DNA of 38,474 nt from a virus (IMGVR_UViG_2778261226_000006), one strand, 5' to 3'; positions 8,045 through 37,540 are shown, counted from the first letter of the stretch. Numbers and translations: made by a program. Notes: generated by a model not told the origin, from the sequence alone.

Positions 8045-8075
8045 CTGATGAACGTAAAAAAACGTTTTACATCAG
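8045..8075 (+). terminator. Hairpin downstream of gene A (possible early-operon terminator)
   Basis: CTGATG-AACGT-loop-ACGTT-(TTA bulge)-CATCAG. The T-tract is weak, so this call is tentative. Confidence 0.3.
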
Positions 8076-8090
8076 TAAGATTATTATATA

Positions 8091-8106
8091 CTGTAAATAT
8101 AAACAG
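8091..8106. promoter_or_regulatory. LexA (SOS) box
   Basis: taCTGTaaatataaACAGtg is a perfect CTGT-N8-ACAG with an AT-rich core. It lies 44 nt upstream of the 8150 start in an AT-rich promoter-like stretch. Confidence 0.8.
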
Positions 8107-8149
8107 TGGTTATCTATACAGTATTGTTTGCGGTGTCATAGGAGGAAAG

Positions 8150-8338
8150 ATGCAGGACTATTTTTTGGAGTCTTTGAAGCTCCAGCGCATTGATTTTTTT
8201 CTTAAGCTTGTAGCGGCTAGTGAGTGTAGTGATGAAGAGAAGGGGCTGGCCCTGCAGTGGGTTTCTGAATTGACTGATGAACTCATGGCAAAAATCAGAA
8301 GCCACGAATACAACCGCTCAATGGATGTCATCAGCTGA
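8150..8338 (+). CDS. Small SOS-controlled protein; candidate Tum-like antirepressor (62 aa)
   Basis: GGAGGA RBS (8141-8146) before ATG 8150, directly downstream of the LexA box. The position equals 186 tum. No sequence motif recognised. Confidence 0.55.
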   Translation: MQDYFLESLKLQRIDFFLKLVAASECSDEEKGLALQWVSELTDELMAKIRSHEYNRSMDVIS

Positions 8339-8348
8339 GGTGACTTTT

Positions 8349-8582
8349 ATGCGCATTGAAATAATGATCGATAAAGAGCAGAAGATTAGCCAGTCTACCC
8401 TGGACGCTCTGGAGTCCGAGCTTTACCGCAACCTGCAACCCATCTATCCCAAGACCGCTATCCGCATCCGTAAAGGGTCGGCAAACGGCGTTGAGCTGAG
8501 TGGCTTAAAGCTTGATGAAGACAAAAAGCGGGTGATGGAAATTATGCAACAGGTTTGGGAAGACGACAGCTGGCTGCACTAA
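8349..8582 (+). CDS. DinI-family protein
   Basis: MRIEIMIDKEQKISQSTLDALESELYRNL...KKRVMEIMQQVWEDDSWL parallels E. coli DinI (MRIEVTIAK...ISEILQETWES..DWF). Confidence 0.85.
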   Translation: MRIEIMIDKEQKISQSTLDALESELYRNLQPIYPKTAIRIRKGSANGVELSGLKLDEDKKRVMEIMQQVWEDDSWLH

Positions 8583-8964: not shown

Positions 8965-9576
8965 ATGGATTTAGTCTTTAAAGTTCTGGCTTCGTTGGGT
9001 GGGGTGTCTTTTGTTGCATCTGGCATATTTGTTTGGATCGGGAAAGTTTATTTAGAAAGATATAAGTCGCGGCTAAACAAAGATATTGCTGAATTTCAAT
9101 CACAACTGAGTGCAACTAATGAAAGAATAAAGGCTAAGTTAGACAATTCTGTTTATGTAACGAAAGCGTATTTTGATAAGGAGTTATCAGCATATAGTCT
9201 CATTTGGAATTCGATGTTTGAAACCAGAGAAAGCGTGCTTAAGCTGAGGCCTGCGCTGGATCATGTTGACCCCAACGAACCATTTGAAGAGAGAAAATTT
9301 AGAAGGTTGAAAGTTTTTTTTGATGCATTTAACACTTTTGTTACAAGTGTTGAATCTAACAAACCGTTCATCTCACCAGAGGTTTATATAATCTTGGACC
9401 GTTTCCGGAAGGAATGCCTTTCAGAGTCAATATCGTTTAAGCATAGCGATCCAGAATTTGACGGGCAAAATTATTGGAAAGAGGCGGAGTTGAACCATAC
9501 AACCATCACCAAGCTTTTTGATGAGACGTGTGATGCAATTCGAAACAGGATGCACACATTAACTGTGGTTACGTAG
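8965..9576 (+). CDS. Single-pass membrane protein with helical cytoplasmic domain (203 aa); cargo at the tin/old position next to cos
   Basis: N-terminal TM helix VLASLGGVSFVASGIFVWIG followed by a long predicted helical region. It starts a visibly AT-rich block. The position corresponds to the P2 tin/old variable locus. Confidence 0.75.
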   Translation: MDLVFKVLASLGGVSFVASGIFVWIGKVYLERYKSRLNKDIAEFQSQLSATNERIKAKLDNSVYVTKAYFDKELSAYSLIWNSMFETRESVLKLRPALDHVDPNEPFEERKFRRLKVFFDAFNTFVTSVESNKPFISPEVYIILDRFRKECLSESISFKHSDPEFDGQNYWKEAELNHTTITKLFDETCDAIRNRMHTLTVVT

Positions 9577-9668
9577 GTTTCCAAAAAGTCTCGATGCCCG
9601 CTTTGGAGATTGTGCATGTCTATGCCGCATGAATCCGCATGATCGTTTGAGGATCGTTTTAGCTGAGG

Positions 9669-9695
9669 CCCGCCAGGAGTGGCGGGATTTTGCTT
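9669..9695 (+). terminator. Rho-independent terminator-like hairpin
   Basis: CCCGCCA-ggag-TGGCGGG followed by ATTTTGCTT, downstream of the 203-aa ORF. Confidence 0.45.
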
Positions 9696-9736
9696 ATGTC
9701 ATGCAGGCGCATGAAAACCGCTACATAAAGCGGGCA

Positions 9737-9755
9737 GGCGTGGCGGGGATACGAG
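9737..9755. other. Candidate cos cohesive-end site (186-like)
   Basis: GGCGTGGCGGGGATACGAG shares its first 13 nt with the 186 cohesive end as I recall it (GGCGTGGCGGGGAAAGCAT; P2 is GGCGAGGCGGGGAAAGCAC). It lies in a GC-rich non-coding island between two AT-rich cargo blocks. Its orientation relative to Q matches P2. Confidence 0.55.
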
Positions 9756-9825
9756 CGCGCGCAAATATGGAAATTAGCTGCGTTTTGTTATATATAGGAG
9801 AGATATTAAAAGGGTAGGCACCACT

Positions 9826-10350
9826 ATGACTGTTTTACACCTTGTAGCAGACCACCTTGTTAAGCAGGCTAATACAACCCATAGAAAGGGGGAGGTGCAC
9901 GCAATATTAGCAGATGCATATGGTCGTTCTGCTTTTAATCGGTATTATTATGCTTGTTTTCTTAACGTCCGTGAGTTTGTTTCAACTATTGATTCCAATT
10001 GGGGCAAGGTCAAGCATGCAGATGTTCCAAAATTATTACGTGATAGTGTAAGTAGAAAGATAGAAGTTGAGCTCCAAAAATCAGAAAAAATTGGCGATAT
10101 AACTTTATGTGAATATAAATCTAAAAAGAGCTTAATACGTACTTCACTGAACAATATGGCTTCAACTATGGCATTGGCATATACAATTAGGGGAGTTGTT
10201 GATTATGAGCCGGAAATTGAGATGATATTCTGTAATGGCAGTTTTTCGATTAATAAAACATCAGTGGCTTCGGCTAAGGGGTGGCTACAAACCATTAATT
10301 CAGAAAGATCGAAGGTTACCAGAATTATGAAGGAGATTGGCTTTGTCTAA
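9826..10350 (+). CDS. HEPN-like all-helical protein (174 aa), first gene of the retron-associated operon
   Basis: AYGRSAFNRYYYACFLNVREFV...KVKHADVPKLL and a distal AYTIRGVVDYEPE resemble the HEPN (PF05168-type) pattern: ...YYA.F.a...l....sH... then R...DY. AT-rich. The stop overlaps the next ORF. Confidence 0.72.
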   Translation: MTVLHLVADHLVKQANTTHRKGEVHAILADAYGRSAFNRYYYACFLNVREFVSTIDSNWGKVKHADVPKLLRDSVSRKIEVELQKSEKIGDITLCEYKSKKSLIRTSLNNMASTMALAYTIRGVVDYEPEIEMIFCNGSFSINKTSVASAKGWLQTINSERSKVTRIMKEIGFV

Positions 10351-11080
10351 CCAGAAAATATTATCAGAATTGTTGGTAAAATTCCCGTTTATAAAAGTTA
10401 AAGATGTAACAGATTTTATGGATACAATTCTGTTGATCATCCCAATTAACAAAATAGTACCATTGTCTGCTTCGAATAGTATAACAAAACGCCAGATATC
10501 TTTATTGGTGAAACGAATAACAGAAAAGCTAAATGTAAGAGTGTTGATTAGTTACTCACCATTTTCAGATAAAGACAATATTGAAGCGGCTTTAGTGGCG
10601 TTAGCGAGAAGTAATTTTAAAAAAGGGAAGATATCTGATTTGAATTTATCTTTCTTTGATTCGCAAAACGCAGTGCTTTATGTCTTTTGTAAAAACCTTA
10701 CATTATCAGAACGCGAGAAGTGGGAGTCGTTAGTTGTAGGGATATTAAACGGTTTTAATATAAAAGTGACTTCATTTGTATATGAGGCTAAAAATAATCC
10801 TGAACCTACAATGATGGTTATTTTAAGAGCGGCAAAAAAATGTCAGCCCTTTGATCTTCCAAGATTGTTCAGTCAACTTGATAATGGCGATTATCATATT
10901 GAATCACTTGATTGGCTGAATGGGAAGCTAGACAACTTACGTAAGAAAGGATTTTTATTAAGAAGCCATGACGGAACTTATAGAATGACATTGTCAGGGT
11001 TAGAAATAGTTCCAGTGACTAAATCTAGGCAAAGTTCTGATATAGAGAGGGTCCTTTATCTTGCACGCAAACATCTATAG
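10337..11080 (+). CDS. Unknown protein with C-terminal winged-helix-like domain (about 245 aa), second gene of the retron-associated operon
   Basis: Overlaps the upstream stop (TTG 10337 or TTG 10343, 7 nt after GGAG). The C-terminal segment MMVILRAAKKCQPFDLPRLFSQLD...LDNLRKKGFLLRSHDGTYRMTLSGLEIV looks like a wHTH with a beta-wing. The N-terminal alpha/beta region was not recognised. Confidence 0.72.
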   Translation: MALSNQKILSELLVKFPFIKVKDVTDFMDTILLIIPINKIVPLSASNSITKRQISLLVKRITEKLNVRVLISYSPFSDKDNIEAALVALARSNFKKGKISDLNLSFFDSQNAVLYVFCKNLTLSEREKWESLVVGILNGFNIKVTSFVYEAKNNPEPTMMVILRAAKKCQPFDLPRLFSQLDNGDYHIESLDWLNGKLDNLRKKGFLLRSHDGTYRMTLSGLEIVPVTKSRQSSDIERVLYLARKHL

Positions 11081-11089
11081 TGGTATATT
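11061..11089 (+). promoter_or_regulatory. Sigma70 extended -10 promoter for the retron ncRNA
   Basis: TTGCAC (11061-11066), a 17-nt spacer containing TG, then TATATT (11084-11089): TGgTATATT. The predicted start, about 7 nt downstream, coincides with the first base of the a2 repeat (11096). Confidence 0.5.
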
Positions 11090-11095
11090 CGCGTT

Positions 11096-11268
11096 GGTAG
11101 TGGCGTTCACGAGAGTATGCATCATGCTCATTTGTGAAGGTCGCGGACAGAATGTGCGCCTGCGAATCAGCAGTCGTTCCTTCGAAACGTCTGCTGATTC
11201 GCAGGCGTCATCAACGAAAGTTTTCATCAGCTTTGCTTAAGGATTGACCTTATGAAAACGCCACTACC
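11096..11268 (+). ncRNA. Retron msr-msd non-coding RNA (template and primer for msDNA)
   Basis: 12-nt perfect inverted repeats GGTAGTGGCGTT (11096-11107, a2) and AACGCCACTACC (11257-11268, a1). Short msr-like hairpins lie at 11108-11136. The long msd hairpin has arm GCCTGCGAATCAGCAG (11158-11173) and arm CTGCTGATTCGCAGGC (11191-11206), 16 bp perfect, plus a 4-bp inner stem. It lies immediately upstream of, and overlaps the start of, a retron-type RT. Confidence 0.7.
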
Positions 11269-12229
11269 CTTATTTTTCACATTCACTGATGCCGAACAGT
11301 TTCTTAAGGCGTTGAGCACACCGCTGAGAGATAGATATTCTGCGGAACTTATTCGACTACAAGGCCTCAGGCTTCCCCCATTAGTTTCTTGGAGTATCTT
11401 GTCTGTTGCCATTGGCGTAAGCCCACAATTTATTACTTCGTTAATTAAGAATAAGTCAAAATACTATCGTGTTTTTTCTATTTCCAAAGGAAGAGGAAAG
11501 AAAAAAAGAATTATTGAAGCACCCAAGGTTAGTATAAAAATCATTCAGTCTTGGGTCGCTCATCATTTAAGCATTAATCATAGTCTTGGCATAAGTGAAA
11601 ATGCATATGCTTTTATCCCAGGTAAGAATGGGATATATGAAGCTGCAAGTAAACATTGTGGTGCAAAATGGATCCTGTCTATTGATTTAAGAGATTTTTT
11701 CCATACGATCACTTCAGATATAGTGATTTCAACATTAGTTGAAATCGGATATAGAGCCGATCAGGCTGCTAAATTGAGTGAATTACTTACCTTGAATCAG
11801 AGACTTCCGCAAGGTGCGCCAAGTAGCCCTGTTATCTCAAATTTAGTATTTAGGTCAACTGACTTAAAGATTAATGAGTTGATTTCTAATACGGGTATTA
11901 AATATACTAGATATGCTGATGATTTGACCTTCTCCGGTGATGATGAAACATTTGATATCGAGGAACTTAAAGATAATGTTGTAGAGTTGTTACTATCTGA
12001 TAATTGGGTTGTGGCTGAGGAAAAACTCAGAATAGCTAGGATTCCTAATAGATTAAAAGTACATGGTTTTCTAGTTCATGAAAATAAACCTAGATTGACT
12101 AAAGGCTATCGAAATAAAATTAGAGCATATAAACATTTATTGAGGACTGGGAAAATAGTTGAGAAGGATTTTGATAAAATTAAAGGGCATGTTAACTATA
12201 GTGAATATATTGATAGATTGAATGAGTAA
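11252..12229 (+). CDS. ret: Retron-type reverse transcriptase (325 aa)
   Basis: RT motifs KKKRIIEAP, SIDLRDFFHTI, LPQGAPSSPVISN and the YTRYADDLTFSG (YADD) active site. Retron-style NAYAF is present, and LKVHGFLV sits at the position of the retron VTG motif. Size is typical of stand-alone retron RTs. Confidence 0.92.
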   Translation: MKTPLPLFFTFTDAEQFLKALSTPLRDRYSAELIRLQGLRLPPLVSWSILSVAIGVSPQFITSLIKNKSKYYRVFSISKGRGKKKRIIEAPKVSIKIIQSWVAHHLSINHSLGISENAYAFIPGKNGIYEAASKHCGAKWILSIDLRDFFHTITSDIVISTLVEIGYRADQAAKLSELLTLNQRLPQGAPSSPVISNLVFRSTDLKINELISNTGIKYTRYADDLTFSGDDETFDIEELKDNVVELLLSDNWVVAEEKLRIARIPNRLKVHGFLVHENKPRLTKGYRNKIRAYKHLLRTGKIVEKDFDKIKGHVNYSEYIDRLNE

Positions 12230-12249
12230 GGGCCTAGCCCTTACTCATT
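12221..12249. terminator. Bidirectional hairpin between convergent ret and Q
   Basis: AATGAGTAAGGGC-cta-GCCCTTACTCATT is a 13-bp perfect stem that spans both stop codons. Confidence 0.6.
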
Positions 12250-13280
12250 TAATTTAATGTGTATATTCCAAAGGATATGATTTTATCTCCTATCCAGTTA
12301 TTTAACTCTTCTAGTCTTCTCTGTAATGGTATTAACTCATTCCTCACAAAAACAAGGCTTGCCTTCTCCACATCCCCAAAACCCCCAACATTATTAGGCA
12401 TTATCCCCATCATTTGTGGGGGTACACGATGCGCCGCCATCATGTCGTCCCGGCTTACGTTCTTGATGTTCAGAAACTCATCCTTCGCCGCGACTTCTGA
12501 TAACGGGATAATCTGAAGTCCGTCCTTTTTGCCGTTAGGAGAGTACATAAACAGATTGCGGAAGTTACCTGGTCCTTTGGCGCTTTTCATTGCATTGCGG
12601 AGGTTGTTCACATCCTCCTGGTTTTGTGCGGCGTCGGTCATGTACATGATGAAGCCTGCATGACTGCCGTTGATGTAATACTTCCGGCGGAACAGCGTGG
12701 CGGACTCGTTGAGCAGGGCTGACGGAATGGCAGAAAGATAACCGGGCAGGCCGTAGATCTCCTGGTTGATGTCCGGTTCCATCAGATGAAAAATGCTGCC
12801 TTTCGTGAACTGATACGGCTGGGTTGTCATACCGTATTGCACAAACCAGTAGGTATCCAGGTCTAACCCGCGTCGGGTGTATTTTGCCAGAGCAGGCTCA
12901 AGGGCGATAACTTCACCAAACCGGTTCGTGCGTTTCTCCAGGTAGGCGTTACCAAATACCAGATAGTCCTGCACAAAACGTGAAAAAGCCTGTTGGCTGA
13001 GCAGCGGGTGAGGGATGTAGGTGCTGGTCAGAATGTTGCATTTCACCGCAATCGGTGAGCTGTGATGCACGGCGGCGCGGAAGGTTCGCGCCAGTCCGTC
13101 AAAGCTGACGGGAGGCTCATACCAGCGATCTGTCTGTACGCATTCCACATAGTCCAGCAGTTCGCGGCGGTCAAGTACTGGAATGGGATCACCGAAGCTG
13201 AAAGCCTCAGCCGTTGGAGCGTTGCCTGGTTTTGTGTTGTGATCAACCTTTACCAGTTTGATGTTTTTATGTTTGCTCAT
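12249..13280 (-). CDS. Q: Portal protein (P2 gpQ)
   Basis: 343 aa at the P2 Q position and orientation. Sequence is of the P2 portal family (…YGLPGYLSAIPSALLNESATLFRRKYY…). Confidence 0.92.
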   Translation of the reverse strand: MSKHKNIKLVKVDHNTKPGNAPTAEAFSFGDPIPVLDRRELLDYVECVQTDRWYEPPVSFDGLARTFRAAVHHSSPIAVKCNILTSTYIPHPLLSQQAFSRFVQDYLVFGNAYLEKRTNRFGEVIALEPALAKYTRRGLDLDTYWFVQYGMTTQPYQFTKGSIFHLMEPDINQEIYGLPGYLSAIPSALLNESATLFRRKYYINGSHAGFIMYMTDAAQNQEDVNNLRNAMKSAKGPGNFRNLFMYSPNGKKDGLQIIPLSEVAAKDEFLNIKNVSRDDMMAAHRVPPQMMGIMPNNVGGFGDVEKASLVFVRNELIPLQRRLEELNNWIGDKIISFGIYTLN

Positions 13281-13984
13281 TCTGCCAGCTCCTCGTTAGC
13301 AAGAGGCCATTCGCACATAAACAGCATTCCCCAGTCCTCTGCTGATAATTCTTTTTTCATATCATTCAGCCAGTTATCAGTAAACAACATTGCTCCTGAT
13401 GCTACTGCATCATCAGCGGTGAATACCATGCGGGTTACACTGTTGTTTCTGCTTAGCTTTTTATATTCCTGCCATGCCTCCGGGTTAGGGCTGGGAGTGG
13501 TGTAGTAGGTGGCGTGGTGGTGTGCGTGCAAGGACATTCCTTTGGCGAGAGTAATCATATTTCTCGGTGATTCAGCCCAGGCATACTCTGACACGTAGAC
13601 ATTTCCACTGAGTGCGGCGGCGTGGCACTTGAGGTCGATAAAATAAATGACCGCACCATTGGGAAACTCCAGATATGTTTTGCCAGATTTTATTTTTCCA
13701 GTGCGCGTATAAGCTGCGGTCTGGCTTAAAAATGCTGACACATAGGCTTTGACTGCCTGCGCTGATGCGGTGCTGCAGCAGAGGAAAATCTGGTTACGCC
13801 CGGTATGCAGTGCATCGATCAGGGCCTCATAGGCAAAAAAGAAATCCGCTCCTGCCTGGCGCATTTTTGTGAGTAAACGGTTTCTACTCTTTGGGCCAGT
13901 GTTCCACTCATACTGGTAATCAAAGAAAGTGCTATCCACCGGAAGTCCCGCGATAGTCATGAGGTTAGTTGGGATTGGGGGCAT
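13277..13984 (-). CDS. Terminase-large-subunit ATPase-domain paralogue (235 aa), lacking the N-terminal and nuclease domains
   Basis: Aligns by eye to roughly residues 150-395 of the adjacent gpP. FFFAYEALIDALHTGRNQIFLCCS matches FYFAHEALIDALLTGRNQIFLSAS. NVYVSEYAW matches NLYLDEYFW. YYTTPS matches YFSTPS. MLFMCEW matches LLMCEF. Start and stop overlap the P stop and the Q start. Confidence 0.8.
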   Translation of the reverse strand: MPPIPTNLMTIAGLPVDSTFFDYQYEWNTGPKSRNRLLTKMRQAGADFFFAYEALIDALHTGRNQIFLCCSTASAQAVKAYVSAFLSQTAAYTRTGKIKSGKTYLEFPNGAVIYFIDLKCHAAALSGNVYVSEYAWAESPRNMITLAKGMSLHAHHHATYYTTPSPNPEAWQEYKKLSRNNSVTRMVFTADDAVASGAMLFTDNWLNDMKKELSAEDWGMLFMCEWPLANEELAE

Positions 13985-15750
13985 CAAAAAATCTCCACAA
14001 TATTGCTGGTATTGGCGGACTCGCCCTGCAGCGGTTCGTTAAACAGTGCGTGCATTGTTGCCCAGGCCAGATCGGCATGGCTGGCTTCTTCGCTGCGGCT
14101 GGCTTCATAGGTCGGGCGGTTGCCGCTGGCGGTGGTGGCGCGACGGATTGCCATAAATGACTGCGCAATGTCGGTGTGCCCGGCGTCAAACTCCAGACGG
14201 CGGTGGCTGATAATGTCGTAGGCCTTGAGTACCAGGGCGTTTTTAACGTTGGGGTTGTAGACAAACTCCCGGACGGCAGGAAAGAACGCTTTCACGTTCT
14301 CGTAAACTCCGTGACCGACACCTGTCGAGTCGATACCGATATAGGTCACGTTGTACTGTTCGGTCAGTTTTTTGATGGCGTCAGCCTGGGCGCGGAAGTC
14401 CATCCCGCGCCACTGGTGACGCTCAAGAATGCGAAACTTACCGCCTGGCACGGCTGGCGGTGCCACCACCACGCATCCGGCGCTGTCGCCGTTCTGCGTA
14501 CCTTTTGCCGGGTCATAACCGATCCACACTTCTCGCCAGCCAAACGGGCGCAGGGCCAGTGCATGAAAGTCGGTCCAGACTTCCCAACTGTCCACCATGC
14601 ATGCCTGCAGCTCGCTGAGCGGAAATACGGACGCGAGATCGTCCACGAATTCACACATCAGCAGGTTCTGGTATTCGTCCGGGCTGTATTCCATGCGCAA
14701 CTGGTCAAGGTCGAACAGGTTACAGCCGCCGCGCACCGCATCTTCCACGGTGACTATCTGGCGGTATTGCCCGTCTGCACACAGCAGGCCTGGAGCCAGA
14801 TTGCTGTGGGACAGGTCGATGTCCACCTTGTCGGCTTTATTGCGCCCACGGTTGAATAGCGCACCGGACCAGAACGGATAAGCACTGTGTGTCAGGCTGG
14901 ATGGCGTGGAAAAATAGGTTTGTCGCCATTTTTTGTGAATAGCCATACCGGAAGCCACTTTGCGCAGCTCCTGGAATTTCGGTATCCAGAAATATTCATC
15001 CAGATACAGGTTTCCGTGGTAACTCTGGGCCGTGCGGGCATTGGTGCCGAGGAAATACAGTGTGGCCCCGTTGGGAAGCACCATCGGATCGCCTTTCAGC
15101 TCCACTTCCACTTCTTTGGCGAAGTCGATGATGTACTGCTTAAAGACGTGGGCCTGTGCCTTGCTGGCGGAAAGGAAAATCTGGTTACGTCCGGTAAGCA
15201 GAGCGTCAATCAGGGCTTCATGGGCAAAGTAAAAGGTCGCGCCGATCTGGCGTGACTTCAGCAGGTTGCGGATGCGGTTGGTTTTTCCGGCTTCCCACCA
15301 GTGGCGCTGGTAGTTGAACATGGAGGAATGGAAGATTTCTTCCAGCTTCTCAATCTGCTCATCGGTGAAAACATTCTTTTCCGGCTGACGGCGCGGGCCT
15401 TTGTTGCGGTTGGCGACGTTAGGGTTTAAGTCGGCTTCGTTGCCGCCATTGTTAAACTTGCCGATCCGCGCGTGGCGTTCCGACTGGCGCGCCAGCAGGT
15501 CAATCTCTTTGAAATCTTTCCCTTCTTTGTGCTCCTTCATAATGAGCTGGCAGTAGCGTGCGGCGGTGGTGAGCTGCATCTGATCCAGCGGCCCATAGTC
15601 ACCCCACTTGTCGCGTTTCTTCCAGCTGTGAACGGTTGCAACTTTCTCGCCCAGCATTTCAGCAATGCGGGCTACACGGTATCCCTGAAAGTACAGCAGC
15701 ATGGCCTGCCGACGGGGATCGAGATCTGCGGGTGTCAGTGTGGTGTTCAT
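13984..15750 (-). CDS. P: Terminase large subunit (P2 gpP)
   Basis: 588 aa with an ATPase segment (KSRQIGATFYFA, LYLDEYFW) and a C-terminal nuclease-type domain (IGYDPA...IGIDSTGVG). Occupies the P2 P position. Confidence 0.93.
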   Translation of the reverse strand: MNTTLTPADLDPRRQAMLLYFQGYRVARIAEMLGEKVATVHSWKKRDKWGDYGPLDQMQLTTAARYCQLIMKEHKEGKDFKEIDLLARQSERHARIGKFNNGGNEADLNPNVANRNKGPRRQPEKNVFTDEQIEKLEEIFHSSMFNYQRHWWEAGKTNRIRNLLKSRQIGATFYFAHEALIDALLTGRNQIFLSASKAQAHVFKQYIIDFAKEVEVELKGDPMVLPNGATLYFLGTNARTAQSYHGNLYLDEYFWIPKFQELRKVASGMAIHKKWRQTYFSTPSSLTHSAYPFWSGALFNRGRNKADKVDIDLSHSNLAPGLLCADGQYRQIVTVEDAVRGGCNLFDLDQLRMEYSPDEYQNLLMCEFVDDLASVFPLSELQACMVDSWEVWTDFHALALRPFGWREVWIGYDPAKGTQNGDSAGCVVVAPPAVPGGKFRILERHQWRGMDFRAQADAIKKLTEQYNVTYIGIDSTGVGHGVYENVKAFFPAVREFVYNPNVKNALVLKAYDIISHRRLEFDAGHTDIAQSFMAIRRATTASGNRPTYEASRSEEASHADLAWATMHALFNEPLQGESANTSNIVEIF

Positions 15751-21261: not shown

Positions 21262-21700
21262 ACTGCAGAAGGTGGACGACTGGCTGAGTGCCTTGCTGGC
21301 GAATCTGGAACCAGCCTCGAGAAGCCGCATGATGCGCCAGCTGGCGCAGGAACTTCGCCGGACACAGCAGCAGAATATCAGGATGCAGCGCAACCCTGAC
21401 GGCAGCAGCTATGAACCGCGACGGGTAACAGCACGCAGTAAAAAAGGCCGTATCAAACGTCAGATGTTTGCAAAGCTGCGCACCACAAAATACCTGAAAA
21501 CTGCTGCCAGCACCGACTCTGCCAGCGTGCAGTTTGAAGGCAAGGTGCAGCGCATTGCCCGCGTTCACCATTACGGCCTGCGAGATCGCGTCAGTCGTAA
21601 GGGACCGGAGGTGCGTTACGCAGAGCGTCGCCTTCTGGGTGTAAATGATGATGTTGAGGCAATGACCCGCGACATGATTCTGCAATGGCTGGCGGGGTGA
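21254..21700 (+). CDS. S: Tail completion protein S
   Basis: 148 aa at the gpS position with a GTG start that overlaps the R stop. Confidence 0.85.
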   Translation: MAELQKVDDWLSALLANLEPASRSRMMRQLAQELRRTQQQNIRMQRNPDGSSYEPRRVTARSKKGRIKRQMFAKLRTTKYLKTAASTDSASVQFEGKVQRIARVHHYGLRDRVSRKGPEVRYAERRLLGVNDDVEAMTRDMILQWLAG

Positions 21701-21704
21701 TCTT

Positions 21705-21722
21705 TGTATCAGCACTGATACA
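21705..21722. promoter_or_regulatory. Late-activator site (TGT-N12-ACA), PV-like
   Basis: TGTatcagcactgatACA is a near-perfect palindrome, 47 nt upstream of the V start. Confidence 0.55.
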
Positions 21723-21768
21723 AGTTGCAGCACTGCCGCCTTTCTTCCCCTGATGGCAACCTTTCCCT

Positions 21769-22347
21769 ATGAACGCACAATTAACCGAAATCATGCGCCT
21801 TATCACCAACCTGATCCGCACAGGGGTAGTCACCGAAGTGGACAGGGAAAACTGGCTTTGCCGGGTGAAAACGGGCGAGCTTGAAACCAACTGGATCAGC
21901 TGGCTGACGCTGCGTGCCGGGAATGCCCGTACATGGTGGCGACCATCGGAAGGTGAGCAGGTGGTGCTGCTGAGTCTGGGCGGCAATCTGGAAACCGCCT
22001 TTGCGCTGCCCGCTGTCTATTCGAATCAGTTCGCACCACCGTCGACGTCGGCGGACGCCTGCGTGACAGAACATCCTGACGGTGGCTGGTTTGAATACGA
22101 ACCCGCCACCGGGCGCTGGTATGTCAGGGGCATCAAATCAATGGTCATTGAGGCTGCTGACAACATCACCATGAAAACCAGTGAGTTTGTACTGGAGGCT
22201 GACCGCACGCGCATTAACAGCGAAGTGGTGATCAATGGTGGCGTTACCCAGGGCGGCGGAGCGATGAGTTCTAACGGGATCGTGGTTGATGCGCATCAGC
22301 ATACTGGCGTCCTGAAAGGCGGCGATACAACCGGAGGCCCGGTATGA
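21769..22347 (+). CDS. V: Baseplate spike/assembly protein V
   Basis: gpV family N-terminus with an OB-fold region (…RVKTGELETNWISWLTLRAG…). Confidence 0.9.
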   Translation: MNAQLTEIMRLITNLIRTGVVTEVDRENWLCRVKTGELETNWISWLTLRAGNARTWWRPSEGEQVVLLSLGGNLETAFALPAVYSNQFAPPSTSADACVTEHPDGGWFEYEPATGRWYVRGIKSMVIEAADNITMKTSEFVLEADRTRINSEVVINGGVTQGGGAMSSNGIVVDAHQHTGVLKGGDTTGGPV

Positions 22348-23598: not shown

Positions 23599-24196
23599 TC
23601 TGCTGCCACCGGGTTCAACTTCACTGGAGCGCCGACTGGCGCAAACCTGTAGCGGGATTTCTGATTTGCAGGTGCCGCTGCGTGACTTGTGGAATCCGGC
23701 TACCTGTCCGGTCAGCTTCCTGCCTTATCTCGCCTGGGCGTTCTCTGTGGATCGCTGGGATGAGGGCTGGACAGAAAGCGTCAAACGCCAGGTAGTGAAG
23801 GATGCTTTTTATATTCATCAGCATAAAGGAACCACCAGTGCCGTGCGGCGGGTGGTGGAACCGTTCGGATTCCTGATCCGCATTATTGAGTGGTGGCAGA
23901 CCGGAGAAACACCGGGCACGTTTCGCCTGGATATCGGCGTGCAGGACCAGGGCATCACTGAAGATACCTATCTGGAACTTGAGCGACTGATAAGCGATGC
24001 CAAACCATGTAGCCGCCACATGATCGGCATGTCCATCAATCTGCAGACCAGCGGCCCGCATTGGGTGGGAGCCGCCAGCTATCTTGGCGAAGAAATCACG
24101 ATCTATCCGTATATCAACGAAACGATTATTTCCGGTGGCACCGCGCATGAAGGCGGGGCGGTCCATGTTATTGACACAATGAGAGTGAATCCATGA
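23591..24196 (+). CDS. I: Baseplate/tail protein I
   Basis: LLPPGSTSLERRLA...FLPYLAWAFSVD matches the gpI family. Confidence 0.88.
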   Translation: MNSLLPPGSTSLERRLAQTCSGISDLQVPLRDLWNPATCPVSFLPYLAWAFSVDRWDEGWTESVKRQVVKDAFYIHQHKGTTSAVRRVVEPFGFLIRIIEWWQTGETPGTFRLDIGVQDQGITEDTYLELERLISDAKPCSRHMIGMSINLQTSGPHWVGAASYLGEEITIYPYINETIISGGTAHEGGAVHVIDTMRVNP

Positions 24197-25713
24197 GCAC
24201 AAAATTTTATACCCTGCTGACGGATATTGGCGCGGCGAAACTTGCCAGCGCCGCCGCGCTCGGTGTGCCGCTAAAAATTACCCATATGGCGGTGGGCGAT
24301 GGCGGTGGAGTATTGCCAACGCCGGACGCAAAGCAGACGGCACTGGTAAATGAGAAACGCCGGGCTGCGCTGAATATGCTTTATATCGACCCGCAGAACA
24401 GCAGCCAGATTATTGCCGAACAGGTGATCCCTGAAAACGAGGGCGGTTGGTGGATACGTGAAGTGGGCTTGTTTGATGAGTCCGGGGCATTGATTGCCGT
24501 GGGCAACTGCCCGGAAAGCTATAAGCCGCAACTGGCTGAAGGTAGCGGGCGCACTCAGACCGTGCGCATGGTGCTGATTACCAGCAGCACGGACAATATC
24601 ACCCTGAAAATCGACCCTGCTGTAGTGCTGGCAACCCGCAAGTATGTGGATGACAAGGCACTGGAGCTGAAGGTGTACGCGGATAATCAGATGGCAAAAC
24701 ATCTTGCCGCACCGGACCCGCATTCACAGTACGCGCCAAAAGCCAGCCCAACATTTACCGGAACCCCCAAAGCGCCGACGCCAGCGGCGGGGAATAATAC
24801 CACGCAACTTGCGACCACCGCGTTTGTTCAGGCGGCACTGACAGCCCTGATTAATGGTGCGCCAGCCACGCTGGACACGCTGAAAGAAATAGCCGCAGCC
24901 ATTAACAATGATCCGAATTTCAGTACCACCATTAACAATGCGCTGGCACTAAAAGCACCGTTGTCGAGTCCGGCACTCACCGGAACGCCAACAGCCCCCA
25001 CGGCGGCGCAGTCGGTCAACAATACACAGATTGCCACTACGGCTTTTGTGAAATCGGCGATTGCAGGAATGGTGGGTTCTGCACCTGCTGCACTGGATAC
25101 ACTGAACGAACTGGCGGCGGCACTGGGGAATGATCCGAACTTTGCCACGACAATGCTTAATGCGCTGGCAGGTAAACAACCGCTGGACAATACGCTTACC
25201 AATTTGAGTGGAAAGGATGTAGCTGGTCTTCTCGCATACCTTGGTTTGGGAGAAGGCTCTGCATTACCGGTTGGTGTGCCTATTCCGTGGCCTTCAGCCA
25301 CTCCGCCAATGGGGTGGCTAAAATGTAACGGAGCAGTATTTTCTTCTGAAAAGTACCCAAATCTGGCAAAGGCTTACCCAACATTAAAATTACCAGATTT
25401 ACGCGGTGAATTTATTCGTGGCTGGGATGATGGGCGCGGGATTGACTCTGGTCGTAACTTATTATCTGCACAGAATGATGCAATTCAGAATATTGTTGGT
25501 TCTTTTGGGCGTACCCAGCTTTTTAGAGACGTACTTAGTTCAGGGCCATTTAGTCAACATGGGCAAGTATTATCTACAGGTCTAAAGGAAGCCGAAATTA
25601 TTGAGGGTTATGGCGCTTATAACTGGACATTCGACGCATCTCGCTCAGTTCGCACAGCATCTGAAACCCGCTCCCGTAACATCGCCTTTAATTATATTGT
25701 GAGGGCTGCATGA
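24193..25713 (+). CDS. H: Tail fibre protein H (constant N-part plus currently expressed variable C-terminal receptor-binding cassette)
   Basis: The conserved N-terminus MSTKFYTLLTDIGAAKLA matches P2 H. The C-terminal PIPWPSATPPMGWLKCNG...LPDLRGEFIRGWD is a tail-collar motif. Confidence 0.9.
   Translation: MSTKFYTLLTDIGAAKLASAAALGVPLKITHMAVGDGGGVLPTPDAKQTALVNEKRRAALNMLYIDPQNSSQIIAEQVIPENEGGWWIREVGLFDESGALIAVGNCPESYKPQLAEGSGRTQTVRMVLITSSTDNITLKIDPAVVLATRKYVDDKALELKVYADNQMAKHLAAPDPHSQYAPKASPTFTGTPKAPTPAAGNNTTQLATTAFVQAALTALINGAPATLDTLKEIAAAINNDPNFSTTINNALALKAPLSSPALTGTPTAPTAAQSVNNTQIATTAFVKSAIAGMVGSAPAALDTLNELAAALGNDPNFATTMLNALAGKQPLDNTLTNLSGKDVAGLLAYLGLGEGSALPVGVPIPWPSATPPMGWLKCNGAVFSSEKYPNLAKAYPTLKLPDLRGEFIRGWDDGRGIDSGRNLLSAQNDAIQNIVGSFGRTQLFRDVLSSGPFSQHGQVLSTGLKEAEIIEGYGAYNWTFDASRSVRTASETRSRNIAFNYIVRAA
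24745..25188 (+). repeat. Tandem duplication of a 74-aa tail-fibre repeat unit within H
   Basis: SPTFTGTPKAP...TTAFVQAAL...LDTLKEIAAAINNDPNFSTTINNAL is followed by SPALTGTPTAP...TTAFVKSAI...LDTLNELAAALGNDPNFATTMLNAL. Confidence 0.85.
25229..25254. repeat. Invertase crossover site, left (cix/gix/hix-like 26-bp site) inside H
   Basis: TTCTCGCATACC-TT-GGTTTGGGAGAA has imperfect dyad half-sites. Its right half is the exact reverse complement of the left half of the site at 27174-27199. Confidence 0.7.
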
Positions 25714-26315
25714 TAAGTAAAGCTGTATTAAATAATGAACTCATCGCCACAAAGGCCGGAGACATTACCGTTTATAATTATGATGGTGAAACACGGGAAT
25801 ATATTTCCACATCAACTGAATATCTTGCTGTGGGTGTCGGTATCCCGGCATGTTCCTGTTTAGATGCTCCTGGCTCATATAAAGCTGGTTATGCAATTTG
25901 CCGTTCTGCAGATTTTAACTCATGGGAATATGTGCCAGACCATCGCGGTGAAATCGTCTATAGCACCGAAACAGGAGAATCAAAAGAAATCACAGTTCCG
26001 GGTGATTACCCTGAAAATACAACCACTATCGCCCCGTTAACGTCATACGATAAATGGGATGGTGAGAAATGGGTGACCGACACTGAGGCACAGCATAACG
26101 CCGCAGTAGACGCGGCAGAAGTACGGCGCCAGTCACTGATTGATGCGGCTATGGCTTCCATTAGTCTGATTCAGCTGAAATTGCAGGCCGGGCGGAAGCT
26201 GACGCAGGCAGAAACAACCCGGCTTAACGCTGTGCTGGATTACATTGACGCGGTGACTGCAACAGATATCAGCACCGCGCCGGATGTCATCTGGCCTGAA
26301 CTACCGGAGGCGTAG
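25710..26315 (+). CDS. G: Tail fibre assembly chaperone (gpG/U-like), expressed orientation
   Basis: The C-terminal half (...EAQHNAAVDAAEVRRQSLIDAAMASISLIQLKLQAGRKLTQAE...LDYIDAV) is of the tail-fibre-assembly family. The start overlaps the H stop. Confidence 0.85.
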   Translation: MISKAVLNNELIATKAGDITVYNYDGETREYISTSTEYLAVGVGIPACSCLDAPGSYKAGYAICRSADFNSWEYVPDHRGEIVYSTETGESKEITVPGDYPENTTTIAPLTSYDKWDGEKWVTDTEAQHNAAVDAAEVRRQSLIDAAMASISLIQLKLQAGRKLTQAETTRLNAVLDYIDAVTATDISTAPDVIWPELPEA

Positions 26316-26730
26316 GCCATTCAATATCTGGAGCACTGGAGGTATCAACCAGTTCCAGTGCGTCCAGATAATCCAGCCATAAATTATATTGTTCCAGCTC
26401 GTCACCTTTCAGACGACCAATAGCAGCTTTGCCAGGCCACTGATGGGTATTGATGTAGGTATTGACTTCTGAAACCAAAGATATTTTTTTCATTTCAGCC
26501 GCCAGCACCTCATCCTCTTTTGAAGGCGGCGGGGAATTAATCCATATTGGCCGTCCTGAACTGTCAGCGCCAATTTCTTTCCCTTCTGGATGCAGCCCAA
26601 GAAATTGCTCATATGTTTCTCTGGTAATTTCAATAACATCATCAGGAAGCGTTCCCGCATCCTCATATTCTGGAAACAATTCTTGCAGATAAAAACTTTT
26701 ACTTCCGGGTGAAAAGAATACTGAGTTCAT
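26287..26730 (-). CDS. Alternative tail fibre assembly chaperone (silent orientation)
   Basis: Same family (...HQWPGKAAIGRLKGDELEQYNLWLDYLDALELVD...). It is convergent with G and overlaps it at the 3' ends, as Mu U/U' do. Confidence 0.85.
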   Translation of the reverse strand: MNSVFFSPGSKSFYLQELFPEYEDAGTLPDDVIEITRETYEQFLGLHPEGKEIGADSSGRPIWINSPPPSKEDEVLAAEMKKISLVSEVNTYINTHQWPGKAAIGRLKGDELEQYNLWLDYLDALELVDTSSAPDIEWPTPPVVQAR

Positions 26731-26732
26731 TC

Positions 26733-27186
26733 TTACCGTCCAATGATTAACGCTGAGACGCTGGTATCTGAAGGAAAGGCTGCATTCAGTGGTTTGTCGA
26801 CTTTGAACACAATCGTATTATTCCCCCTGACAGCGGCAAAAGAACAAACCGCCGTCGCGTATGAACCTGTAATATTACTGGATACACCACCATAGGCTGT
26901 TGTTGATACCAGAGGGATAACGCCCAGCACCTTATTAGGAAATACAAAGGGCAATGTGGCTGTGGCAATATAAGACTTATTAGAACCTGTGATGGCATAA
27001 GCATTATCAGTCATTCCATTCATCGCCACTGGGCCGCTTATACTTACAGTAACCATCTGAATGATTAGCCCGTCAGGTTGACGAATCACAAAATTTCCAT
27101 TGCCACCAGTAGCCGTCCAGAAAGACATATCAGGGATTTGGTTTTCCCCGTTGCCCACATTCCGTTTTGCCGCTTCTCCCAAACCA
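26733..27186 (-). CDS. Alternative tail-fibre C-terminal cassette (promoterless; would fuse to H after inversion)
   Basis: The reading frame through the crossover gives ...GLGE|AAKRNVGNGENQ..., which matches the LGLGE junction in H. The rest is an unrelated beta-rich receptor-binding domain. The track ORF's first codons (27187-27227) lie outside the segment. Confidence 0.8.
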
Positions 27187-27199
27187 ACGTTTAAGAAAA
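27174..27199. repeat. Invertase crossover site, right
   Basis: TTCTCCCAAACC-AA-CGTTTAAGAAAA, in inverted orientation relative to 25229-25254 (central AA versus TT). Confidence 0.7.
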
Positions 27200-27254
27200 T
27201 GCAGAGGTAACAGCTAACTGGCATCATCTCCGGTTTTTATTCAGGGGGATGATC

Positions 27255-27821
27255 ATGCTTATTGGCTATGTACGCGTGTCAACAAATGACCAGAACACCG
27301 ATTTGCAACGTAATGCACTGAACTGCGCGGGATGTGAGCGGATTTTTGAGGACAAAATCAGTGGCACTAAGTCCGACAGACCGGGGCTGAAAAAACTACT
27401 CAGGACACTATCGGTAGGAGACACGCTGGTTGTCTGGAAGCTGGACAGGTTGGGGCGCAGTATGCGGCATCTTGTTACGCTGATAGAAGAGTTGCGCCAG
27501 CGTGGTGTGAATTTCAGAAGCCTGACTGACAGTATTGATACCAGTACCCCAATGGGCCGTTTCTTTTTTCATGTCATGGGTGCCCTGGCTGAAATGGAAC
27601 GCGAACTGATAGTTGAACGCACCAGGGCAGGGCTGGCTGCAGCTCGTGCCAAAGGCAGAGTAGGTGGACGCCGTCCTAAGTTGACCACCGAACAGTGGGC
27701 ACAGATTGGGCGTTTACTCGAGGCCGGAGAATCAAGACAGCGTATTGCACTGATTTTTGATGTAGGCGTTTCTACCATTTATAGAAAATTTCCGGCAAAT
27801 AAGATCAATGAATCCCCCTGA
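27255..27821 (+). CDS. Serine DNA invertase (Gin/Cin/Pin/Hin family)
   Basis: MLIGYVRVSTNDQNTDLQRNAL (catalytic Ser), ...LVVWKLDRLGRS..., and the C-terminal HTH GGRRPKLT...IALIFDVGVSTIYRKF. Confidence 0.93.
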   Translation: MLIGYVRVSTNDQNTDLQRNALNCAGCERIFEDKISGTKSDRPGLKKLLRTLSVGDTLVVWKLDRLGRSMRHLVTLIEELRQRGVNFRSLTDSIDTSTPMGRFFFHVMGALAEMERELIVERTRAGLAAARAKGRVGGRRPKLTTEQWAQIGRLLEAGESRQRIALIFDVGVSTIYRKFPANKINESP

Positions 27822-27869
27822 ATCAGCATTATGTTGATTATCCCTGCAAGCAGACAAATACCGTTATTT

Positions 27870-27887
27870 TGTGTGAATAACGACACA
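27870..27887. promoter_or_regulatory. Late-activator site (TGT-N12-ACA), PF-like
   Basis: TGTgtgaataacgacACA lies 77 nt upstream of the FI start. Confidence 0.55.
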
Positions 27888-27963
27888 ACTGCGCTTAGCT
27901 GTTTGTCAGGCACAATCACTTCAACATAGGGCGAAGCCTAATCCAATCAGGAGGTTCGCCACT

Positions 27964-29136
27964 ATGGCTCAGGATTACCACCACGGGGTGCGCGTTGTTG
28001 AAGTCAACGAAGGCACCCGATCTATTACCACGGTGAGCACCGCCATCGTGGGTATGGTCTGCACGGGCGATGATGCCGATGCAAAAATGTTTCCTCTTAA
28101 TAAACCCGTGCTGATCACTGATGTGCTGACTGCCAGCGGTAAAGCGGGTGAGTCCGGTACTCTGGCCCGTTCGCTGGATGCCATCGCTGACCAGGCAAAA
28201 CCCGTGACCATTGTTGTGCGTGTGCCGCAGGGTGAAACGGAAGACGAAACCACGACCAATATCATCGGCGCAGTGACTGCTGAAGGTAAAAAAACAGGTA
28301 TGAAAGCCCTGTTATCTGCCCAGTCACAGCTCGGCGTTAAACCGCGCATTCTCGGCGTGCCAGGCCACGACACCAAGGCGGTAGCTACTGAGTTGCTGAG
28401 CGTGGCGCAAAGCCTGCGTGGATTTGCTTACCTGTCAGCGTATGGCTGCAAGACAGTGCAGGAGGCGATCACTTACCGCGAAAACTTCAGCCAGCGCGAA
28501 GGGATGCTGATCTGGCCTGACTTTACTGGCTGGGACACGGTGCTGAATGCCGAAGCAACGGCATATGCCACCGCCCGTGCGCTTGGTCTGCGCGCCAAAA
28601 TTGACGAGCAGACCGGATGGCACAAAAGCCTGTCCAATGTGGGCGTGAACGGTGTCACCGGAATTTCTGCAGATGTGTTCTGGGATCTGCAGGACCCGGC
28701 AACCGATGCAGGTCTGCTGAACCAGAACGACGTCACCACGCTTGTGCGTAAAGACGGTTTCCGCTTCTGGGGGTCCCGCTGCCTGAGTGATGACCCGCTC
28801 TTTGCCTTCGAAAACTACACCCGCACGGCGCAGGTGCTGACGGACACGATGGCAGAAGCACACATGTGGGCGGTGGATAAACCGCTTAACCCGTCGCTGG
28901 CCCGCGACATTATCGAAGGTATCCGCGCCAAAATGCGCAGCCTGGTCAGTCAGGGCTATCTCATTGGTGGTGATTGCTGGCTGGATGAGTCGGTGAACGA
29001 CAAAGACACGCTGAAAGCCGGAAAACTCACCATCGACTACGACTACACGCCAGTGCCGCCACTTGAAAACCTGATGCTGCGTCAGCGCATCACCGATCAG
29101 TACCTGGTGAATTTCGCCAGCCAGGTCAGCGCGTAA
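27964..29136 (+). CDS. FI: Contractile tail sheath protein FI
   Basis: 390 aa beginning [19 protein letters not shown]..., the sheath family. Confidence 0.93.
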
Positions 29137-35634: not shown

Positions 35635-35699
35635 GCCGCCAAAGATAAGTAAAGTAGTTTCTAACTTATTGATTATGGAATGGAAGAATAGCAGGCAAC

Positions 35700-35742
35700 A
35701 AAAAACCCATCAACCTTGAACCGAAATGGCGGGGTTGATGGG
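35700..35742 (-). terminator. Rho-independent terminator of ybjL
   Basis: On the minus strand: CCCATCAAC-loop-GTTGATGGG followed by TTTTTT. Confidence 0.7.
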
Positions 35743-35854
35743 CTCCACAAAATGGGGACATCAAAGAAAAGCAGTGGCACTAATTAAGACTGATGCCCTG
35801 CGGAAAAGTTCTGCGGTTGTGCAAAAAAATTTCATTTTCAGGGCAACTTCAGTT

Positions 35855-37540
35855 TTATCCTAATCCTGGCCATACCATGACGATGATTGTCCCTGCCAGC
35901 GTCAGCAGGACGTTGGCGATTGCGTAGGTGCCCGCATAGCCCAGCGCAGGGATGTTACTGCGAGCTGTATCACTGATGATCTCCATTGCCGGCGCGCAGG
36001 TGCGTGCGCCCATCATTGCGCCGAACAACAGTGCGCGGTTCATTCGCAATACATAAGCACCGAACAAGAAACAGATAACCACGGGCACAAGACTGACAAT
36101 TAATCCGGCAATCAACATCTGACCGCCAATCGCGCCCAGGCCGTTATTAATACCGCTACCGGCGCTCAGACCAACGCCTGCCATAAACACCATCAAGCCG
36201 AACTCTTTCACCATGCTTAATGCACCTTGCGGAATGTAACCGAAGGTCGGGTGGTTAGCACGCATAAAGCCCAGCATAATTCCGGCGAATAACAACCCGG
36301 CAGCGTTCCCCATGCCGAAACTGAATGTGCTGAACTGGAAGGTGATCATCCCGATCATCAGCCCAATAACAAAGAAGGCGCAAAATGCCAGCAGGTCAGT
36401 GACCTGGCTGTGAATCGAGATAAAGCCGATGCGATCGGCGATGGTTTTTACGCGACGGGCATCACCGCTGACTTGTAAAACGTCACCTTTGTTAAGCACG
36501 ACGTTGTCATCTATCGGCATCTCAATCTGGCTACGAATGACGCGGTTAAGGAAGCAACCGTGATCGGTCAACTTCAGTTGTGCGAGACGTTTACCTACAG
36601 CGTTATGGTTTTTAACGACCACTTCTTCAGTGACGATACGCATGTCGAGAAGGTCACGATCGAAAACTTCTTTACCGTTACGGAAGCTGGGATCGAGTCG
36701 GGCATGGGCGTCGGGATAGCCTACCAACGCTATTTCATCGCCCATTTGTAGCACGGCATCACCGTCTGGATTTGCCAGAATCCCGTTACGTCGAATACGT
36801 TCAATGTAGCAGCCGGTTTGTCGATAAATACCCAGTTCACGCAGATTTTTGCCGTCGGTCCAGGCCACCAGCTCCGGGCCGACGCGATAGGCGCGGATCA
36901 CCGGTAAATAAACCTTACGGTTGGCATCAGTGTCCAGGCCACGTTCGCGGGCGATTTGCTGGGCGCTGGTCTGTAAGTCCTGATGCTGCAATTTCGGCAA
37001 GTAACGCGCACCAACAATCAAACTCACCAGACCGATTAAATAGGTTAAGGCATACCCGAGGCTCAGATTATCCAGTGCCAGTGAGAGCTGCCTGCTTTCC
37101 ATGCCGAAATGACGCAGTGTATCGCCAGCACCGACCAGAACCGGTGTCGACGTCATAGAGCCTGCTAACATACCGGCCGTCAGGCCAATATCCCAGCCAA
37201 ACAGCTTACCTAACCCTAAGGCGATCACCAGCGCACTGCCAACCATCACCAGTGCTAACATTAGGTAATTTTTCCCATCGCGAAAAAAAATGGAAAAAAA
37301 GTTCGGTCCGGCTTCGACCCCGACGCAGAAAATAAACAGCATAAAGCCAAGATTAAGCGCATCGGTGTTAATGCTGAAATGTTGTTGGCCTAATAACAGC
37401 GATACGACTAAAACGCCAATGGAATTACCCAGTTGGATCGAACCAAGTCGTAACTTTCCGAGACATAGCCCAAGCGCGAGGACCACAAATAATAACAGAA
37501 TGTAATTCCCATTTAACAATTCGGCGACGTTTATATTCAC
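35855..37540 (-). CDS. ybjL: Putative AAE-family transporter YbjL (two membrane domains plus central RCK-C/TrkA-C domains)
   Basis: 561 aa beginning [33 protein letters not shown]..., recognised as E. coli YbjL. Confidence 0.95.

Follow-up and report, generated by a model that had tools for sequence, protein, structure and literature searches.

Comparative evidence for a two-state, Pin-type invertible tail-fibre cassette in a complete P2-like prophage of Escherichia coli

A stretch of viral DNA of 38,474 nucleotides (nt), IMGVR_UViG_2778261226_000006 (one strand, coordinates counted from its first letter; hereafter "the window"), very probably carries a working two-state Pin-type invertible tail-fibre cassette within a complete P2-like prophage of Escherichia coli. 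The invertible segment (25241-27187; no strand assigned) comprises 1,947 bp including both core dinucleotides of the two recombination sites that border it. It holds two alternative receptor-binding tips for the tail-fibre protein H, each directly upstream of its own Caudo_TAP chaperone, and the gene for a serine DNA invertase is located next to it. The original prediction for this DNA, which had been made from the sequence and had listed two tips, two chaperones and an invertase, was borne out in its gene content by domain searches.

The evidence that the segment inverts comes from comparison with other genomes. When 25241-27187 was flipped in silico at the central dinucleotides, H read into the second tip (tip 2) and yielded an in-frame protein of 500 amino acids (aa), here termed H'; two complete E. 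coli genomes have annotated proteins that agree with it at 496 of 500 residues. The junction between the constant part of H and tip 2 was present at full length and with 97-99% identity in 25 complete E. coli genomes. Both forms of the module were found in nature; the form observed in the window matched EA7 at 99.9% and C2 at 99.7%, and the flipped form gave a single unbroken alignment of 2,347 nt with 1916D18 (98.6%) and with SW070919 (98.5%). At a query coverage of at least 80%, modules located beside an invertase gene showed the observed form in 151 genomes and the flipped form in 91. Moreover, flanks collinear with those of the window surround an inversion in 1916D18 that is confined to 25238-27190 (99.2% identity), which places the breakpoints inside the 18 bp common to both sites (25238-25255 and 27173-27190), and the same inversion between collinear flanks was found in 2012C-4502. 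Overall, these comparisons support inversion of the segment at these sites, and the natural pattern is hard to explain otherwise. The in-frame H' and the occurrence of both orientations also agree with the earlier proposal that inversion swaps an unrelated tip and its cognate chaperone onto H.

The two recombination sites are pix-like (no strand assigned) and 26 bp in length, and each consists of two imperfect 12-bp inverted half-sites flanking a 2-bp core. The left site (25229-25254) reads TTCTCGCATACC-TT-GGTTTGGGAGAA, with the crossover dinucleotide at 25241-25242, and the right site (27174-27199) reads TTCTCCCAAACC-AA-CGTTTAAGAAAA, with the crossover dinucleotide at 27186-27187. The cores match, and as they read TT (left) and AA (right) on the plus strand, the two sites have opposite orientations. 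Both contain the same inner half-site (GGTTTGGGAGAA), whereas the outer half-sites are unlike each other. Together, the sites form the longest inverted repeat in the region from 24 to 28 kb (I1; 27 nt, 81% complementary). A search with the dyad consensus TTCTCNNAAACCNNGGTTTNNGAGAA, allowing up to 3 mismatches, returned 2 matches in 38.5 kb, i.e., the two sites themselves, as compared to none in 100 shuffles. Scored over 22 positions of an invertase site, the left site reached 19/22 and the right site 18/22; the same scoring applied to Mu, P1 and K-12 recovered exactly the annotated gix and cix sites plus the two e14 (pix) sites. No third, shufflon-like crossover site was present in the window at up to 3 mismatches, and the next best window position scored 14/22. 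In this respect, the module is unlike the multiple-inversion systems, i.e., those with at least three crossover sites and more than two arrangements, such as p15B Min or a three-repeat module in a P2-like prophage of enteropathogenic E. coli.

The sites are also in register with the reading frames on both strands. The left site sits in the H codons L-A-Y-L-G-L-G-E, with the crossover within codon 350, and the right site is located at the head of a minus-strand frame reading ...GLGE/AAKRN. Site sequences and positions had been predicted correctly to the base, as had the inverted orientation of the sites and their placement at the LGLGE codons of H (left) and at the head of the GLGE/AAKRN frame (right).

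Tail-fibre gene H (24193-25713, plus strand) encodes 506 aa, with a P2-type Phage_tail_fib N-terminus and a C-terminal Collar domain. Its codons 1-349 (24193-25240, plus strand) lie outside the segment and represent a constant part, which matched Phage_tail_fib (PF12571; E = 6.7e-65), shows 53% aa identity to residues 1-329 of P2 H and is collinear in both orientation classes. Tip 1, which is presently fused to H (25241-25713, plus strand), is a Collar-domain receptor-binding end (PF07484; E = 5.4e-15) with a match to the tail collar fibre family phrog_523 (E = 1.5e-73), and the tip 1 region resembles the stf tip and tfa of HK97 at approx. 90% DNA identity. Chaperone 1 (25710-26315, plus strand; 201 aa), the ATG of which overlaps the H stop codon (ATGA), is TfaE-like, with matches to Caudo_TAP (PF02413; E = 1.2e-31) and phrog_105 (E = 1.6e-97) and 89% DNA identity to K-12 tfaE.

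The opposite cassette is encoded on the minus strand. Tip 2 (26733-27187) is presently unfused and represents an alternative, gp53-like receptor-binding end (phrog_12714; E = 1.2e-47), with a Pfam match to Gp53-like_C that falls under the curated cutoff (E = 2.3e-4). Chaperone 2 (26287-26730, minus strand; 147 aa) matched Caudo_TAP (PF02413; E = 4e-28) and shows 56% aa identity to K-12 TfaP; its start is located 2 nt past the tip 2 stop codon, and its expression would be expected after inversion. The two tips are unrelated (BLASTP, E = 3.3), and the two chaperones are alike in their C-terminal 80 aa only. Called mechanically, the open reading frame (ORF) of tip 2 has 164 aa (26733-27227, minus strand) and opens at an ATG at 27227, outside the segment, with an 18-aa leader (MMPVSCYLCIFLNVGLGE). 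RefSeq lists equivalents of this leader ORF as genes in their own right, named either "hypothetical protein" or "phage tail protein".

The Pin-type serine DNA invertase (27255-27821, plus strand; 188 aa) has a Resolvase domain (residues 5-137; E = 6.8e-53) followed by an HTH_7 domain (residues 140-183; E = 1.5e-15). Its ORF opens at 27249, but a start at 27255 is likelier given the position of a GGGGGA Shine-Dalgarno sequence and the RefSeq annotation of near-identical copies. The protein has 85-86% aa identity to PinE, 77% to Cin and 74% to Gin, and it keeps the YVRVST motif with the catalytic Ser9 as well as every residue that is invariant across PinE, Cin and Gin. The best match among solved structures was Gin (3uj3; E = 1.6e-92), as compared to E = 3.6e-34 for gamma-delta resolvase, and the DNA invertase family phrog_125 was matched with E = 2.6e-100. 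Judged by these sequence comparisons, the enzyme is nearer to the canonical invertases than to the resolvases and has the domain plan of a small serine recombinase. Its earlier description as a Gin-family invertase is right as far as the Gin/Cin/Pin group is concerned (74-86% aa identity); more precisely, it is Pin-like.

A stretch at the beginning of the invertase gene (27273-27344, plus strand; gene nt 19-90) is homologous to the P1 cin recombinational enhancer (annotated as "enhancer of Cin-mediated C-segment inversion"), with 56 of 72 positions identical to P1 and 63 of 72 to K-12 pinE. The codons of conserved residues were identical in 61% of cases in this stretch as compared to 47% in the rest of the gene, a modest excess obtained from gene pairs that are not independent, which suggests a DNA-level constraint; the enhancer at 27273-27344 is putative. 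Fis-type G-N13-C 15-mers spaced 48 bp apart were sought in the same stretch, and one good candidate was found (GTGTCAACAAATGAC, 27276-27290); its partner at +49 (27325) is not A/T-rich. A scan of 25000-28100 for sigma-70 promoters and terminators gave 4 promoter-like sites as compared to 4.9 expected by chance, which is uninformative on expression, and none of the 4 is placed to drive the invertase gene or the silent cassette. A weak terminator-like hairpin (27216-27235, plus strand; 6 pairs followed by TTTATT), which is a consensus match only, is located between the right site and the invertase start and could reduce the amount of late-operon transcription that reaches the invertase gene. Rfam searches at the gathering threshold gave no match inside the module, the sole match in the window being RybB, in the host flank.

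Gin, Cin, Pin and Hin bind their sites, form a synapse with Fis and the enhancer and exchange strands at a 2-bp core. This behaviour, along with the annotation of the P1 record, is the basis of the mechanism proposed here, which builds on the sites, the reading frames, the enzyme family and the two natural orientations with breakpoints in the sites, as observed above. Transcription of the late operon (V W J I H) would run through the 349 constant codons of H and on into the segment. The tip that faces the crossover (25241) in a given orientation would be translated as the C-terminal receptor-binding end, with the chaperone behind it co-expressed, and the opposite tip and chaperone would point the wrong way and be out of reach of the H promoter. 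Dimers of the 188-aa serine invertase would bind both 26-bp sites, Fis bound to the enhancer in the 5' end of the invertase gene probably assembles the synapse, and strand exchange at the central TT/AA dinucleotides would flip the 1,947 bp. Both orientations would then coexist in a lysogen population, and the virions released would be of two kinds that differ in adsorption specificity. By analogy with the enzymes named above, we infer dependence on Fis and the enhancer, and the switching rate, for this prophage. Both fibres would presumably assemble on this P2-type shaft, and the two tips may use different receptors, which would give two virion types with different host range.

Several points weigh against this interpretation. 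The evidence for inversion is comparative and does not come from this prophage in its own host, and the window shows one orientation; the expectation of different receptors and host ranges derives from the dissimilarity of the tips only; the enhancer homology lies in a coding region that is conserved anyway; and the interval from the right site to the invertase ATG yielded no convincing sigma-70 promoter for this gene. Some of these observations would fit a frozen switch, in which the module stayed intact after acquisition by recombination, the invertase is unexpressed or inversion is too rare, and the two orientations reflect old events or repeated acquisition; the lack of a promoter-like site upstream of the invertase gene, the hairpin at 27216-27235 between the right site and the ATG, and the single orientation visible in the window all point in this direction. 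However, all five ORFs and both sites are intact, and homologous e14 and P2-like modules invert readily in culture. Related prophages with flanks that are 95-99.8% identical differ only by the flip, with a segment identity of 99.2%, and prophages this similar that differ only by the flip argue for recent inversion and not for separate acquisition. We thus consider a frozen switch quite improbable, and a working switch remains the preferred explanation.

Inversion could alternatively be selected mainly for a role of the unfused tip in the lysogen, as opposed to the virion. Translated on the leader ORF (ATG 27227), it would be a free receptor-masking protein that blocks superinfection, in the manner of e14 StfE2, which is created by inversion of the P segment and blocks T2 adsorption (PMC12529663). 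The 164-aa ORF does start outside the segment, in the same arrangement as e14 stfE/StfE2 (PMC12529663), and equivalents are annotated as genes in RefSeq. On the other hand, a GGAG directly abuts the ATG at 27227, which is a poor spacing for a ribosome site, and the scan of 25000-28100 gave no promoter for the leader ORF. As the module is located in the late operon of a complete prophage and is fused to a full-length P2-type fibre, a host-range role suffices without extra assumptions, and selection mainly for such an effect in the lysogen seems very improbable to us. The sites might, finally, be a mere coding motif, i.e., conserved LGLGE linker codons that appear inverted because two fibre fragments converge, with no recombination involved; in favour of this, GLGE is indeed encoded by the shared inner half-site in both tips. 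However, the right site extends with its outer half beyond the tip coding sequence proper, and this half nevertheless fits the dyad; the right site also matches e14 at 25/26 positions, and an invertase gene is located 55 bp away. Natural inversions with breakpoints exactly at the sites already contradict a mere coding motif, and we give it next to no credence.

A switch of this kind is easily overlooked in annotated genomes. RefSeq labels its parts "phage tail protein", "hypothetical protein" and "recombinase family protein" and presents the unfused tip as a gene of its own, and the switch is therefore invisible in the records. Recognising it explains assembly differences among otherwise near-identical prophages and gives warning that lysates of this prophage probably contain two adsorption types side by side. 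The module further represents two ready-made, naturally compatible tip and chaperone pairs for a P2-type fibre, which could be used in host-range engineering of P2-based particles or tailocins.

The segment has also been found outside P2-like prophages. E. coli A38 carries a segment with approx. 99% identity (25230-27190, corresponding to 9001-10960 of locus L005) in an unrelated prophage of the Mu-like-tail/e14 type with a 253-aa fibre. The high identity sets in at 25230, on the outer margin of the left site, with approx. 50% immediately to its left, and falls to 72-87% in the invertase gene beyond the right site. These data suggest that the segment behaves as a cassette bordered by the recombination sites and that such cassettes are exchanged. 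One conceivable route, which we consider rather unlikely, is that Pin-type invertases occasionally recombine sites of two prophages on one chromosome, two such events swapping tip and chaperone cassettes between phage families. If this were true, the switch would not only toggle between two states but also serve to exchange host range horizontally. Crossover sites were reportedly put forward by Sandmeier and colleagues as linkers for the exchange of tail-fibre modules, and the pattern of the A38 cassette fits this older idea.

The prophage that carries the switch is complete. P2 proteins aligned to the window (tblastn) collinearly from int (55-1053) to ogr (approx. 34.8-35.0 kb) with 28-68% identity, and the genes follow the P2 order (int, A, Q, P, O, N, M, L, lysis, R, S, V, W, J, I, H, FI, FII, E, T, U, D, ogr). 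P2 has a terminator, fun(Z) and the activator site of pF between G and FI, and no invertase gene; the module fills this same interval, which makes the location originally proposed for it, the Z/fun slot, accurate. The right edge of the slot is formed by the tail sheath gene FI (27964-29136, plus strand; Phage_sheath_1, 68% aa identity to P2 FI). Ahead of FI and outside the switch, a perfect TGT-N12-ACA dyad (27870-27887, plus strand) presumably represents the Ogr/activator site of a pF-like late promoter; it is located 85 nt ahead of the FI ATG as compared to 83 nt in P2. The other matches to this dyad in late-gene intergenic regions occur only at the pP/pO (15797) and pV (21705) positions. 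The motif is not enriched in the window as a whole (8 found as compared to 10 expected), so that its positions alone are telling, and direct alignment of the spacer between the invertase gene and FI with the P2 pF region was poor. The promoter assignment hence relies on the dyad and its spacing, and on this footing the predicted PF-like late promoter downstream of the invertase gene, like the slot itself, fits the comparison with P2.

Some features of the window outside the switch were also recorded. On the right, RybB small RNA (105 bits; 35697-35775, minus strand) is located approx. 650 bp beyond ogr, with the E. coli core-genome genes ybjL, ybjM and grxA (35855-37540, minus strand) coming next, which indicates that the prophage adjoins rybB. 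The old/tin hotspot, between the A and Q genes, holds a trio resembling a type IX retron (9826-12229, plus strand), i.e., HEPN_IX (9826-10350, plus strand; E = 1.4e-52), HTH_IX (10337-11080, plus strand; E = 1.5e-61) and the reverse transcriptase RT_IX (11252-12229, plus strand; E = 4.2e-129; Pfam RVT_1). A DinI-like gene (8277-8582) is located near this trio, as are ORFs at 8048-8338 and 8965-9576 that gave no family match. A 236-aa ORF (13277-13987, minus strand) resembles the N-terminal ATPase part of a terminase large subunit (Terminase_6N, E = 3.2e-17; phrog_3746, E = 1.2e-85; approx. 30% identity to residues 146-371 of P2 P). It is wedged between the portal gene Q (12249-13280) and a full-length terminase gene P (13984-15750), two genes that abut in P2. 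EA7, the closest relative with the same orientation, has an extra minus-strand hypothetical gene between S and V (756-1571 of locus L002), at the position of P2 orf30, which is lacking from the window (approx. 21650-21770). On this comparison, the interval between S and V is another small variable slot.

Switches of the same kind are present in other P2-like phages and prophages. A "DNA invertase" is annotated in this slot in the deposited P2-like phages NC_041848 (from O157:H43 T22), 500465-1, 500465-2 and Klebsiella KP12, and in these phages the gene order is as here, i.e., H, tfa, reversed tfa, reversed tip, DNA invertase and FI. These phages differ from the window in their tips and in parts of the invertase; NC_041848, for example, matches 61% of the module at 89% identity. 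We take the Salmonella prophage Fels-2 to be P2-like as well. Its fibre gene, beside the pin homologue fin, is inverted between LT2 and LT7, as was inferred from comparison of these two strains (PMC7953296). In two P2-like prophages of enteropathogenic E. coli (EPEC) E2348/69, Goldberg et al. found coexisting orientations by whole-genome sequencing and polymerase chain reaction (PMC4272514). One of these EPEC modules is a two-state switch and the other has three repeats and four states (PMC4272514), as compared to two sites and two states in the window. A survey of phage hotspots further reported that the P2 Z/fun hotspot often contains a DNA invertase gene with inverted adjacent genes (bioRxiv 10.1101/2024.10.15.618418). 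Overall, the switch is real and looks functional, but it is an element of an already known kind with near-identical copies in public genomes; its mechanism has been textbook knowledge since the Mu G, P1 C and e14 P segments, and it raises no new biological question. The original prediction was correct in that P2 itself has no such switch, but the noteworthiness claimed on that ground was overstated, as switches in P2-like prophages had already been described.

Among the classical systems, the e14 P segment has the same layout as the module studied here, i.e., tip, chaperone, reversed chaperone, reversed tip and invertase gene (stfP, tfaP, tfaE, stfE and pinE in K-12). Of the e14 sites, CTCTCGAAAACCTTGGTTTGGGAGAA and TTCTCCCAAACCAACGTTTATGAAAA, the right one matches that of the window at 25/26 positions (TTCTCCCAAACCAACGTTTATGAAAA), and in the left one the inner half is the same as in the window. 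Positions 25241-25256 of the window hold the 16-nt core TTGGTTTGGGAGAAGG, and inversion of the e14 P segment has been shown to occur at an identical repeat (PMC12529663). Such inversion has been demonstrated experimentally with PinE and with PinQ, and quantitative data exist for PinE (PMC12529663). StfE and TfaE are homologues of tip 1 and chaperone 1, with 84-89% identity at the DNA level, and the invertases share 85% aa identity. Tip 2 and the N-terminal half of chaperone 2, on the other hand, have no DNA match in K-12 e14, and tip 2 is unrelated to the StfP tip. We considered whether the module was the K-12 e14 P segment outright and rejected this, as only tip 1 with tfaE (84-89% DNA identity) and the invertase gene (81% DNA identity) match. 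The constant part differs as well, being a 349-codon P2-type H in a complete prophage here and a short fibre stub of a defective element in e14, and the segment comprises 1,947 bp as compared to the published 1,797 bp in e14 (PMC12529663).

P2 shows synteny with the prophage from int to ogr, with the interval between G and FI as a variable slot, and has no invertase, second site or alternative tip. The P2 H gene does hold a single gix-like sequence, TTATCGAATATCTCGGTTTACAGGAA (13857-13882 of locus L008), which matches Mu gixL at 22/26 positions in our count. As P2 has neither an invertase nor a partner site, this sequence appears to be the remnant of a junction of this kind. The Mu G/Gin and P1 C/Cin systems share the logic of the switch described here, with a constant Sc part, variable Sv and Sv' parts, chaperones U and U', 26-bp dyad sites and an adjacent invertase gene. 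As in Mu, the invertase gene is located just beyond the right site, and the aa identity to Gin and Cin is 74-77%. Conversely, the sites are of the pix type and not gix (Mu) or cix (P1), the phage that hosts them is P2-like, and the segment is shorter (1.9 kb, as compared to approx. 3.1 kb in Mu and approx. 4.3 kb in P1), with short variable parts of approx. 150 aa.

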